Shown: piece by piece, positions 19,673 to 24,663 of the stretch
Layout: each line of letters opens with the position of its first letter
How positions within the stretch are numbered: the first letter of the stretch is position 1
From: Bacteroidales bacterium
GTDB lineage: Bacteria > Bacteroidota > Bacteroidia > Bacteroidales > FEN-979
DNA length: 44,127 nt
Reading direction: 5' to 3'
Assembly: GCA_049520195.1 (NCBI GenBank)
Contig: JBEKQA010000005.1
Span: 1 to 44,127, forward strand
Program-made: the position numbers and the translations under genes
Notes under the pieces: generated by a model
Told to the model about the DNA's origin: nothing
The model's input: only the letters and a program-made list of their open reading frames with translations
The model's database searches: none

Positions 19673-20872
19673 ATGTACGGTAAATTTAAAGATCATCTCC
19701 AAAAGCAACTCGATACGATTATTGCAGAAGGACTTTACAAAAACGAACGTGTCCTTACGACTCCCCAGGGAGTAGAAATCAAAACAGACAAAGGTCAGAA
19801 AGTGCTGAATTTTTGCGCCAACAATTATCTGGGGCTCAGTAACGATCCAAGAACTATGGCCGGCGCTAATATGACTTTTTTCCGCTATGGCTTCGGAATG
19901 TCCTCGGTAAGATTTATTTGCGGAACCCAGAAGATACATAAAGACCTTGAAGCAAAATTGAGTGAATTCCTCGGGACTGAGGATACCATTCTTTATTCCT
20001 CTGCCTTCGATGCGAATGGGGGTGTTTTTGAGCCTCTGCTGAGTGAACAGGATGCCATCATTTCCGATGAGCTGAATCATGCTTCTATTATCGATGGAGT
20101 CAGACTTTGCAAAGCCCAGCGTTTCCGTTACAAGAACAACGACATGGAGGACCTTGAAGAAGTTCTTCAGGATGCCAGTGAATCAAGATTTAAACTAATC
20201 GTTACAGATGGTGTTTTCTCGATGGATGGGATTATTGCCCAGGTCGATAAAATATGCGACCTGGCTGAAAAATACAATGCCCTGGTCATGGTCGACGATT
20301 CTCATGCAACCGGTTTTGTCGGAAAAACAGGAAGAGGAACCATCGAATACTGTAATGCGCAGGGCAGGGTGGATATTATTTCCACGACCTTTGGCAAAGC
20401 GCTGGGAGGCGCATCCGGAGGTTGTGTCTCAGGAAGGAAAGAAATTGTAGAACTTCTTCGCCAGCGTTCACGGCCATACCTGTTCTCAAATACATTAGCG
20501 CCGGCAATCGCGGGTGCCACACTAGAGGTGCTGAAACTTCTCTCAGAAACCACTACACTCAGGGACAAATTGTTTGAAAACACTTCTCTCTTTCGCAAAG
20601 GAATGGAGAAGGCAGGTTTCAGAATCGTTCCCGGGATACATCCCATCGTCCCCGTTTTATTTGGACATCTCCCGAATGATGCGGTAGTTTCCCAGAATTT
20701 TGCCAATGCCTTACTCGATGAAGGCATCTACGTGATCGGATTTTATTATCCTGTGGTACCCAAAGGAAAATCAAGGATAAGGGTACAGATCAGTGCAGCA
20801 CATTCAACAGAACAGATAGAATTTGCCATCGAGAAATTCGTAAAAGTCGGCAAACAGCTCGGCGCAATTTAA
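19673..20872 (+). CDS. kbl: Glycine C-acetyltransferase (2-amino-3-ketobutyrate CoA ligase)
   Basis: [41 protein letters not shown]-Lys in [22 protein letters not shown]. Confidence 0.93.
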
Positions 20873-20885
20873 ACCCGCAATTAGC

Positions 20886-21269
20886 ATGATATATGGTATT
20901 GGAACAGATATTATTGAAGTCCCCCGCATCGAAAAGGTGATGGAAAAAGACATTGGCTTCCGGGATAAGATTTTTTCTCCCGGTGAGATCGCCTATTGTG
21001 AGACAAAAAGACACAAGTATGAGAATTATGCTGCCCGGTTCTCGGCCAAAGAAGCCTTCATGAAAGCCATCGGGACCGGTTGGAGGTTTGGGATCCGGTT
21101 TGCCGATATCGAAGTTTATCATGATGAATTCGGCAAGCCATTGATAAGGCTTTACGGGAAAGCAGAAGAACTTGTAAAGAATGAAGGGATTTCAAAAATT
21201 CATGTATCTTTATCGCATATAAAAGATGTTGCTACCGCAATCGTGATCGTAGAGACAGATAAAAAATAA
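20886..21269 (+). CDS. acpS: Holo-ACP synthase (AcpS-type phosphopantetheinyl transferase)
   Basis: GIGTDIIE, ARFSAKEAFMKA, GKP, VSLSH. Confidence 0.95.
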   Translation: MIYGIGTDIIEVPRIEKVMEKDIGFRDKIFSPGEIAYCETKRHKYENYAARFSAKEAFMKAIGTGWRFGIRFADIEVYHDEFGKPLIRLYGKAEELVKNEGISKIHVSLSHIKDVATAIVIVETDKK

Positions 21270-21370
21270 ACAGGTCTCATGCAAAGAACTTGGAATACTG
21301 ACTATAGAACTTATCCAAAAACACAATACAACTCAATTCTTACAGTATTAACCAAACAACAAATTTCACT

Positions 21371-23074: not shown

Positions 23075-23160
23075 CCTTGTAATTAATTACCATACCTTAT
23101 CAAAGACTTAAATAGAATATTAATAATAAATTAAAAACCTTTAAAATAGGAGAGTGCATT

Positions 23161-23403
23161 ATGGAAGACATGAAAGAAATAGTCAAAAATTACGTCATCA
23201 ACGAGTATGTGGAAGACGACACCGAATTGACTTACGATACCCCGCTGATCTCTGGTGGTATTGTCGATTCCTTTTCAATGGTATCCCTCAAGCGGTTTCT
23301 TGAAAACAAGTACAAGATCTCCATCCCGGATGATAAAGCCACTCCCGAGGCATTCGATTCGGTCAATAAGATTTGTACACTTGTTAATGAATATTTAAAA
23401 TAA
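23161..23403 (+). CDS. Stand-alone acyl/peptidyl carrier protein
   Basis: 80 aa, acidic; DTPLISGGIVDSFSMV with the phosphopantetheine Ser in DS; FDSV..I at the C-terminus. Confidence 0.9.
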   Translation: MEDMKEIVKNYVINEYVEDDTELTYDTPLISGGIVDSFSMVSLKRFLENKYKISIPDDKATPEAFDSVNKICTLVNEYLK

Positions 23404-23415
23404 TGGAGGTGAACT

Positions 23416-24663
23416 ATGGCATACAGTGACAAAGTACGTAATTCGTACCAGGAAATCCTGAACGGCATGAAAGATGCCGGACTTTTAAAAGTTGAACGTT
23501 ACATTCATTCTGCCCAGGCTGCGGATATTGAAGTTGAATTCCCTGAAGGGGCTTCTCTGAAAAAGGTGATCAACATTTGTGCAAACAACTATCTTGGCTT
23601 ATCCAGTCACCCGGAGGTTGTAAAGGCTGCCCATGCCGGGCTTGATTCACGTGGCTATGGCATGTCTTCTGTCCGCTTTATCTGCGGAACCCAGGATATT
23701 CACAGGCAACTCGAACATATGGTCACCAAGTTCCTTGGTACCGAAGACACGATCCTGTTCCCTTCCTGTATGGATGCTAACGCCGGAGTTTTTGAGGCCG
23801 TCCTGACAAAGGATGATGTAATGATATCCGACCGTCTCGTTCATGCTTCTATTGTCGATGGTATCCGTCTTTGCAGTGCCATGCATGACACTTTCAAACA
23901 TTCAGACATGGCTCATCTGGAAGAAAAACTTCAGCTTCACAGCGACAAGCGCCTTAAAATGGTAATTACTGACGGTGTTTTCTCGATGGATGGAGATACT
24001 GCAAAGCTTGACCAGATGGCCGACCTGTGCGACAAATACGATGCTATGCTTTTCTGCGATGATTCTCATGCCAGCGGATTCATTGGAAAGACCGGCCGCG
24101 GTACGCATGAAAAATGCGGAGTGATGGGAAGGATGGATATTATCACCACTACCTTCGGTAAAGGACTTGGAGGCGCATCCGGTGGTTGCGTTTCAGGACG
24201 TAAGGAACTTGTTGAAATGTGCCGTCAGAAAGCCCGTCCGTACCTCTTCTCCAATACCATTGCACCTCCTGTCGTAGCCGGTGTTATCAAGGTTCTTGAG
24301 ATCCTCTCCGCCACAACAGAACGCCGTGATAAACTTGAAAAGAATACAGAATTCTGGCGCAAAGGTCTTACCGAAATTGGCCTTATCATCAAGGAAGGCG
24401 ATACACCTATTGTTCCGGTCAGGCTGTTCACTGCAAAGCTTTCCCAGGATGTTTCGAGAGACCTTTACGAAGAAGGCATTTATGCTATTGGGTTCTTCTT
24501 CCCGGTAGTTCCGCAGAGCCAAGCCAGGATCCGTACGCAGATATCTGCAGGTCATGAGATCCATCACCTGGAAAAGGCTCTCGATGCCTTCAAGAAGGTT
24601 GGGCAGAAATACAACATTCTTGGAAAGACCAAGCAGGAAATCATCGAAATGTACGGGATGTAG
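23416..24663 (+). CDS. Second, divergent Kbl-like PLP alpha-oxoamine synthase
   Basis: [58 protein letters not shown]-terminal insert and C-terminal extension. Confidence 0.9.
   Translation: MAYSDKVRNSYQEILNGMKDAGLLKVERYIHSAQAADIEVEFPEGASLKKVINICANNYLGLSSHPEVVKAAHAGLDSRGYGMSSVRFICGTQDIHRQLEHMVTKFLGTEDTILFPSCMDANAGVFEAVLTKDDVMISDRLVHASIVDGIRLCSAMHDTFKHSDMAHLEEKLQLHSDKRLKMVITDGVFSMDGDTAKLDQMADLCDKYDAMLFCDDSHASGFIGKTGRGTHEKCGVMGRMDIITTTFGKGLGGASGGCVSGRKELVEMCRQKARPYLFSNTIAPPVVAGVIKVLEILSATTERRDKLEKNTEFWRKGLTEIGLIIKEGDTPIVPVRLFTAKLSQDVSRDLYEEGIYAIGFFFPVVPQSQARIRTQISAGHEIHHLEKALDAFKKVGQKYNILGKTKQEIIEMYGM

Follow-up and report, generated by a model that had tools for sequence, protein, structure and literature searches.

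An AMP-forming ligase, a private acyl carrier protein (ACP) and an alpha-oxoamine synthase act together in the AasR/AcpR/SPT system of Caulobacter and other Rhodobacteria. As described in PMC9386255, the ligase acylates only its own small ACP and not CoA, and the alpha-oxoamine synthase encoded beside the ACP prefers the acyl-ACP, which has been proven biochemically. Here we describe a locus with the same three-part logic in a stretch of 44,127 nucleotides from a Bacteroidales bacterium (assembly GCA_049520195.1, contig JBEKQA010000005.1, positions 1 to 44,127), called the window below. Its core is a four-gene cassette in the order AcpS - Acs-like ligase - 80-aa carrier - Kbl2, Kbl2 being a paralog of the glycine C-acetyltransferase Kbl. 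As in AasR/AcpR/SPT, the ligase, ACP and synthase genes are adjacent (67 of 70 loci for ligase and carrier, 73 of 73 for carrier and Kbl2). That system is decarboxylative, works on long-chain fatty acids and serine and gives a lipid product, whereas the cassette has an acetate-type ligase and a Kbl. Unlike SPT, Kbl uses glycine without decarboxylation and is reversible. Since Kbl2 stays below the cut-off of each of the three SPT equivalogs and the ligase belongs to the acetate type, the cassette is not a member of the AasR/AcpR/SPT system.

Other described systems share parts of the locus. The Tdh-Kbl threonine cleavage pathway (EC 1.1.1.103 and 2.3.1.29; 1fc4, 7bxp) resembles it in that both Kbl proteins of the window pass the Kbl equivalog and an SDR-type L-threonine 3-dehydrogenase (TDH) is linked. 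That pathway uses free CoA and has no carrier, phosphopantetheinyl transferase (PPTase) or ligase, whereas the Kbl2 of the cassette forms a separate clade with 39 fixed differences. The AcsA enzymes under acetylation control (9g79; Pat/AcuA) are like the cassette ligase in their 50-60% identity, acetate-pocket Trp, A10 Lys and nearby Pat; unlike theirs, the gene of the cassette ligase lies directly before a carrier gene in nearly all loci, and the ligases form a tight group with at most 51% identity to representatives of other 50% clusters. The adenylase-carrier pairs DltA/DltC, PltF/PltL and PigI/PigG include the best fold matches of the cassette carrier, but DltC, PltL and PigG carry amino acids, which they deliver to acyltransferases or to NRPS/PKS enzymes and not to a PLP-dependent alpha-oxoamine synthase. 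As judged from sequence, the cassette holds true Kbl- and AcsA-family members in distinct carrier-linked subclades. No description of it was found in full-text searches of the literature, supplementary files not being covered, and it is a tightly conserved, undescribed gene set of uncultured anaerobes. The genes of the string are as follows.

19673 to 20872, + strand: Kbl1, canonical glycine C-acetyltransferase (2-amino-3-ketobutyrate CoA ligase), 399 aa (NF005394, ordinary Kbl clade)
20886 to 21269, + strand: AcpS-type holo-carrier-protein synthase, 127 aa (TIGR00516)
21371 to 23074, + strand: AcsA-type AMP-forming ligase, predicted acetate:[carrier protein] ligase, 567 aa (NF003313)
23161 to 23403, + strand: dedicated carrier protein, DltC/PigG-like, with phosphopantetheine Ser37 in GIVDSFS, 80 aa (fold model)
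23416 to 24663, + strand: Kbl2, carrier-linked Kbl paralog, 415 aa (NF005394, separate clade)

These are the five co-oriented genes described in a previous sequence-only reading of the window, and all are present and intact on the + strand, separated in gene order by 13, 101, 86 and 12 bases. The two Kbl-type alpha-oxoamine synthases it named both score over the NF005394 cut-off. It had also reported no ketosynthase or condensation domain, and none was found among the genes scanned between 10040 and 33751. The host genome is a 3.5-Mb assembly of 294 contigs and 92.75% completeness, and its place in Bacteroidota agrees with a match over cut-off to an EF-G2 model specific to that phylum.

When relatives were searched with the carrier, 22 of the 24 genomes from the same family proved to have an ortholog of 77-95% identity, as did one of 16 genomes sampled from the order's other families. 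Fifteen stretches were taken from relatives' genomes; ten keep the order AcpS-ligase-carrier-Kbl2 intact, and in an eleventh the ligase lies 5 kb away from the carrier. Kbl1 stands before the cassette in same-family genomes, sometimes with an insertion between. Among the wider Bacteroidota only one of 400 other sampled genomes, each at least 90% complete, has a carrier ortholog, so the distribution is patchy.

A pattern scan with one genome per species gave at least 586 stretches encoding a relative of the carrier, paralogs included. The best 80 of these, in all of which the carrier is 73-95% identical, form the locus set used below. By record title they belong to Bacteroidota, Aminicenantes/Saccharicenans, Zixibacteria, Delongbacteria, Ignavibacteriales and a few others, and the closest public loci are titled Bacteroidales, Prolixibacteraceae and Draconibacterium. 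Where enough sequence was available the ligase is immediately 5' of the carrier in 67 of 70 loci (exceptions L067, L077 and L092) and Kbl2 immediately 3' in all 73. AcpS was found 5' of the ligase by script in 53 of 62; of the nine misses, L084, L093 and L111 have AcpS beside a frameshifted ligase and the rest are mainly Delongbacteria. Across phyla the ligase, carrier and Kbl2 are 74-96% identical and AcpS about 50%. The sequence-only reading had staked itself on conservation of the gene order in other genomes, and the order ligase-carrier-Kbl2 is kept across at least five phyla. The arrangement is more than chance. In L084, L093 and L111, all on long contigs of metagenome-assembled genomes (MAGs), the ligase is split over several frames, as is Kbl2 in L111; these splits are probably assembly indels and not pseudogenes because neighbouring genes in L084 (TDH) are also split.

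Contigs assembled from the RNA libraries of four peat and permafrost studies are 85-95% identical to the window. Three runs have contigs that span AcpS-ligase, one record spans ligase-carrier-Kbl2, two others span carrier-Kbl2 and one spans Kbl2-Trx; the runs matched a small share of words, 0.05-0.07. Since these records are assembled contigs of relatives, they do not allow level, strand or transcript ends to be read, and they are compatible with expression in relatives without being proof of transcription or of a single transcript.

The carrier protein has no Pfam match at E<=1e-3 and all its NCBIfam matches are under cut-off. The best of these, the OlsHI ACP model, scores 66.2 bits against 130, and an identity as ornithine-lipid ACP was dropped on this score; the papers behind the model concern planctomycete ornithine lipids. 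Ser37 of GIVDSFS is invariant in 54 carrier sequences with a mean column identity of 80% across phyla. The AF2 model (pLDDT 85.5) has helices at residues 2-16, 40-51 and 68-79 with D36-S37 just before helix 2, and its best PDB folds in Foldseek are PigG, PltL, the carrier of a Gly:CP ligase and DltC, as well as ACPs, at TM scores of 0.66-0.82. The model thus predicts a carrier fold for the 80-aa protein, with the Ser of the D-S motif at the N-terminus of helix 2. The best structural matches are stand-alone carriers loaded by stand-alone adenylating enzymes. In a protein collection there are at least 7986 carrier-related clusters at E<=1e-10, and among 120 of these that were listed the sole name is 'acyl carrier protein' with no Pfam domain recorded.

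A carrier paralog of 39% identity was noticed in a relative (G013), directly before an MBOAT-family gene (L031:9958-11345). Its setting is a polysaccharide biosynthesis cluster with epimerases, a UDP-sugar dehydrogenase and a flippase, so that the two genes form a DltC/DltB-like pair; no ligase was found within 10 kb of this paralog.

AcpS scores 106.1 bits on TIGR00516 against a cut-off of 59.8. That it is part of the unit, as the sequence-only reading proposed, is borne out by its position beside the ligase in most loci and by a second, cassette-specific AcpS copy in two of the five carrier-bearing genomes from other lineages, those of Ignavibacteriales and Zixibacteria. In two more of the five the AcpS is the sole copy, and in the Delongbacteria genome it is unlinked to the cassette. 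The proposal does not hold in full for the present genome, where the AcpS of the window is the only AcpS match and is therefore not a purely private PPTase.

Both Kbl proteins are Kbl enzymes by family. Kbl1 and Kbl2 score 627.7 and 549.2 bits on NF005394 (cut-off 460) and 622.3 and 543.5 bits on TIGR01822 (cut-off 493). Kbl2 failed on the three SPT equivalogs with 300.6 (cut-off 640), 266.4 (500) and 215.2 (670), and it scores far higher on Kbl models than on those for BioF, SPT, ALAS and CqsA. It matches the Kbl structure 7bxp at E 2.9e-131, the Lys of its TFGK aligning with the Lys of GTLGK in 7bxp, and this PLP-binding catalytic Lys (K249) is invariant in 54 Kbl2 sequences. In a quick LG+G4 tree of 107 rows, 68 rows of carrier-linked Kbl2 form one clade (SH-aLRT 100, stem length 0.46) while Kbl1 groups with the ordinary Kbl clade. 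Kbl2 differs from Kbl1 by 39 fixed differences, a loop insert and a conserved 14-residue C-tail. Fixed changes fall in motifs adjacent to the active site, FPSCM(DAN)/YSSAF and DRLVH/DELNH(AS), the Kbl2 form being given first. In the loci examined, the Kbl2 clade was found solely beside the carrier. The gene content, the family membership, the synteny, the separate Kbl2 clade and the carrier fold of the model are what the analysis shows.

A basic docking surface on Kbl2 was considered and is unsupported, the mean net charge being -4.5 (67 rows) against -2.8 for Kbl1 (32 rows). A complex prediction for the Kbl2 dimer with the carrier, made with own alignments, gave 0.03 and 0.15 against a mark of 0.32, which speaks neither for nor against binding. 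In six Delongbacteria-type loci (L062, L069, L076, L081, L083 and L092) a third kind of Kbl, 58-59% identical to Kbl2, lies directly 3' of it and AcpS is not adjacent; these six rows are the sister clade of carrier-linked Kbl2 (joint clade SH-aLRT 100).

The ligase passes the acetate--CoA ligase model NF003313 narrowly (748.7 bits, cut-off 729) and is 50-60% identical over its full length to the 572-aa acetyl-CoA synthetase of PDB 9g79 (E 5e-165). The Trp in DTYWQTETG and the A10 Lys in SGKIMRR are invariant in the window ligase and 62 aligned cassette ligases. According to PMC10455477, this Trp sets the specificity of Acs and limits it to acetate and propionate. At E<=1e-30 the genome has no Acs-family match besides this ligase, and the nearest representative of other 50% clusters is 51% identical to it. 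Se-Acs has three conserved Arg, R191, R526 and R584, with a part in CoA binding and the thioester step. In the ligase R526 is replaced by Leu, R584 is kept as Arg, and the region around R191 is missing or cannot be aligned, as in the 572-aa AcsA structure. The Leu was considered as a mark of a ligase that does not use CoA and was rejected, being invariant in the cassette but shared by 21 of the 66 full-length relatives. A canonical Acs is also present in five of 24 carrier-bearing genomes among relatives and in five of 17 others. These counts hold no pattern beyond showing that the two ligases can coexist, and from the five carrier-bearing genomes the cassette ligase is not just the Acs of its host.

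Two genes 3' of the string bear on its metabolic setting. The string is followed by a thioredoxin-like gene and then by the first of these.

25369 to 28053, + strand: Pat-type protein acetyltransferase, ADP-forming ACS-like domains plus GNAT (Pfam ATP-grasp_5, Succ_CoA_lig, CoA_binding, Acetyltransf_1)
28618 to 29571, - strand: SDR-type L-threonine 3-dehydrogenase (PDB 2yy7 match)

The nearby TDH of the sequence-only reading is confirmed, with E values of 1e-128 to 2yy7 and 1.7e-139 to 5z75, and the zinc-type tdh model TIGR00692 found no protein over its cut-off anywhere in the genome. A same-strand string TDH-AcpS-ligase-carrier-Kbl2 occurs in four Zixibacteria loci and one Ignavibacteriales locus, and TDH lies within the flanks in 11 of the 80 loci overall. 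A Pat homolog is within the fetched flanks in 20 of the 80, and the Pat-type protein is likely to be a regulator of the ligase. A gene of the GPR1/FUN34/YaaH family, a SatP-like acetate channel, is directly 3' of Kbl2 in 14 of 80 (e.g. L036:9334-9891), though it is absent from that position in this window. Together, the linked genes point to threonine, glycine and acetate metabolism. The sequence-only reading had already suggested acetate as the acyl group, which agrees with the pocket Trp kept in the ligase and with the linkage to Pat and acetate-channel genes. The loci share no ketosynthase, condensation domain, acyltransferase or tailoring gene across phyla. A 452-aa protein without a Pfam family is found within the flanks of 25 of the 80 loci (e.g. 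L048:14952-16310).

Given these parts, a carrier-dependent use of acetate and glycine can be proposed. AcpS would modify the 80-aa carrier at Ser37 with phosphopantetheine. The AcsA-type ligase would adenylate acetate and then acetylate the thiol of the carrier, in place of CoA or with a preference over it. Kbl2 would then catalyse the reversible reaction of acetyl-S-carrier and glycine to 2-amino-3-ketobutyrate and HS-carrier, and the SDR-type TDH would connect 2-amino-3-ketobutyrate to L-threonine. The cell would have in the carrier an acetyl-thioester pool of its own, loaded to a degree that does not depend on the acetyl-CoA/CoA ratio. Acetate as the substrate, the loading of the carrier, the preference of Kbl2 for the carrier and the direction are inferences. 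On balance we lean slightly towards this carrier-dependent scheme, which is the simplest one using every conserved part. In its favour are the synteny and the strong sequence constraint across phyla, the distinct Kbl2 clade, the invariant pocket Trp, the linked TDH, channel and Pat genes, the cassette-specific AcpS copies, the resemblance of the carrier model to carriers served by stand-alone adenylating enzymes and the coexistence with a canonical Acs, and AasR/AcpR/SPT is a proven precedent.

For the direction, condensation (acetate, ATP and glycine to 2-amino-3-ketobutyrate and on to threonine) is put forward as a tentative possibility. The lean towards it arises because all known ligase-carrier pairs load, because Pat and the acetate channel are linked and because the gene string includes the sole acpS of the cell. 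Rather doubtful, in our opinion, is the further step that anaerobes have here a CoA-independent, ATP-driven route by which acetate and glycine yield threonine or the keto precursor of it. In such a route acetate would be taken up, a carrier pool kept fully charged would push the unfavourable Kbl condensation, and TDH would reduce the product with NADH.

The sequence-only reading had expected that genomes with the cassette lack thrB/thrC. This is not the case among relatives, as ThrC is over its cut-off in 20 of the 24 carrier-bearing genomes and in one more is 2 bits under; in the other lineages it is found in three of five. Set beside the ATP-driven route are the cassette genomes that have no ThrC over the TIGR00260 cut-off, namely this genome (best 55 bits, at 92.75% completeness), two 99%-complete relatives (G003 and G019) and the Ignavibacteriales and Zixibacteria genomes. 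The absence of ThrC was rejected as an indicator of direction, the protein being under cut-off in three of 24 carrier-bearing genomes, plus the one at 2 bits under, against six of 17 others. ThrC is missing as often in genomes without the carrier, so there is no enrichment and the test is uninformative on direction.

Several results weigh against the carrier-dependent scheme. The ligase is over the cut-off of an acetate--CoA ligase equivalog, it retains the Arg aligned with Se-Acs Arg584 (the CoA 3'-phosphate contact), and the cassette ligase is the sole Acs-family enzyme in 19 of 24 carrier-bearing genomes among relatives; from these points together it may still be a producer of acetyl-CoA. 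The Leu that replaces Arg526 is also found outside the cassette, Kbl2 has no more basic charge than Kbl1, and the AcpS of this genome is the housekeeping copy. Against the synthetic direction in particular, ThrC is retained in most carrier-bearing genomes and ackA is present in the genome.

Another reading is that the ligase is an ordinary acetyl-CoA synthetase, that both Kbl proteins use acetyl-CoA, that the carrier serves another partner and that the gene order reflects shared regulation. The NF003313 match, the identity to the solved 572-aa acetyl-CoA synthetase, the retained Arg584 equivalent and the lack of a second Acs-family enzyme in this genome all agree with it, as does the nearby Pat, a known regulator of Acs. 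Nevertheless we consider it improbable, given that the cassette has no acyltransferase able to load the carrier from CoA, that the carrier is wedged between ligase and Kbl2 across phyla, that the separate Kbl2 clade occurs, among the loci examined, nowhere but next to the carrier and that five carrier-bearing genomes also have a canonical Acs. The same machinery may instead run catabolically. TDH would oxidise threonine, Kbl2 would cleave 2-amino-3-ketobutyrate onto the carrier to give glycine and acetyl-S-carrier, and the reversed ligase would turn acetyl-S-carrier, AMP and PPi into acetate and ATP, so that the energy of the thioester is conserved and the CoA pool is left untouched. This catabolic direction with ATP recovery is a serious rival. 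TDH is co-oriented directly upstream in five loci, record titles and run labels show the organisms with the cassette to be peat and sediment anaerobes, and with ThrC in most of their genomes no new threonine route is needed. To our knowledge TDH and Kbl are catabolic in all characterised organisms, and in Syntrophus aciditrophicus an AMP-forming Acs reportedly runs in reverse. We nonetheless rate the catabolic run as unlikely, since every known ligase-to-carrier system loads its carrier, ackA already gives ATP from acetyl units, and the presence of the only acpS in the gene string argues for constitutive over substrate-induced expression.

Finally, the cassette may make a small amino-ketone (aminoacetone, or a pyrazine-type metabolite or signal), or use another short acid or amino acid, outside threonine and glycine metabolism. 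The fixed changes in Kbl2 lie beside the PLP-stacking His and in a motif that lines the acyl pocket of related enzymes; 2-amino-3-ketobutyrate decarboxylates spontaneously to aminoacetone; and the patchy distribution, with one of 400 other Bacteroidota genomes sampled, is in keeping with such a product. The 74-96% identity of three proteins across phyla would be unusual for secondary metabolism, however, no tailoring, export or regulatory genes are conserved across phyla, the Kbl models give Kbl2 far higher scores than those for BioF, SPT, ALAS or CqsA, and TDH is linked. This product seems to us quite improbable.

If the carrier is the thiol partner in the carrier-dependent scheme, there would be a private acetyl pool in central metabolism linking acetate, glycine and threonine, which are all major currencies where anaerobes turn over carbon and nitrogen, and the logic of ligase, private ACP and oxoamine synthase would extend from lipids to a two-carbon unit. 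Were the ATP-driven route also true, amino-acid biosynthesis would gain a new route, and central amino-acid metabolism its first step that depends on a carrier protein. Annotation pipelines label the genes 'acetate--CoA ligase', 'acyl carrier protein' and 'glycine C-acetyltransferase', and in this way textbook CoA chemistry silently enters the metabolic reconstructions of many anaerobes from peat, sediment and digesters. The proposal concerns four small soluble proteins and is directly testable; two public MAG record titles name Draconibacterium orientale, so a cultured host may exist.

The remaining observations concern signals in and before the gene string. One feature lies upstream of kbl1.

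19633 to 19640, + strand: Bacteroidota-type -7-like element TACCTTTG, by direct reading, 33 bases 5' of the kbl1 start

The sequence-only reading had placed the five genes behind one promoter-like -7 element. The element TACCTTTG is indeed there and is the sole + strand match to TANNTTTG between 19003 and 24796, but over the whole window the motif occurs at chance level (51 matches against 42.2 +/- 6.4 in shuffles), and its label as Bacteroidota-type follows the -7 consensus of that phylum.

Shine-Dalgarno-like sites were seen before two genes of the string, AGGAGAG at 23146-23160 before the carrier gene and GGAGGTGA at 23404-23415 before kbl2, and none was seen for kbl1, acpS or the ligase gene. 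Of 38 loci checked, 29 have GGAG no more than 24 nt from the start of kbl2, including most of the Bacteroidota ones. Bacteroidota rarely use such sites. Together with the patchy distribution, they hint at a horizontal origin or at translational coupling.

A G+C-rich palindromic hairpin, CCCCTCCCCCAAGAGGGAGGGG, is found in intergenic DNA at 19554-19575 (+) and 17012-17033 (-). It is a genome-wide repeat with 54 forward and 55 reverse matches at up to one mismatch, about 47 of them exact, in the 3.5-Mb genome, each palindromic copy being scored on both strands; a reversed control pattern gave 0 matches. Its stem folds at -22.3 kcal/mol, and it looks like a REP/MITE-like element.

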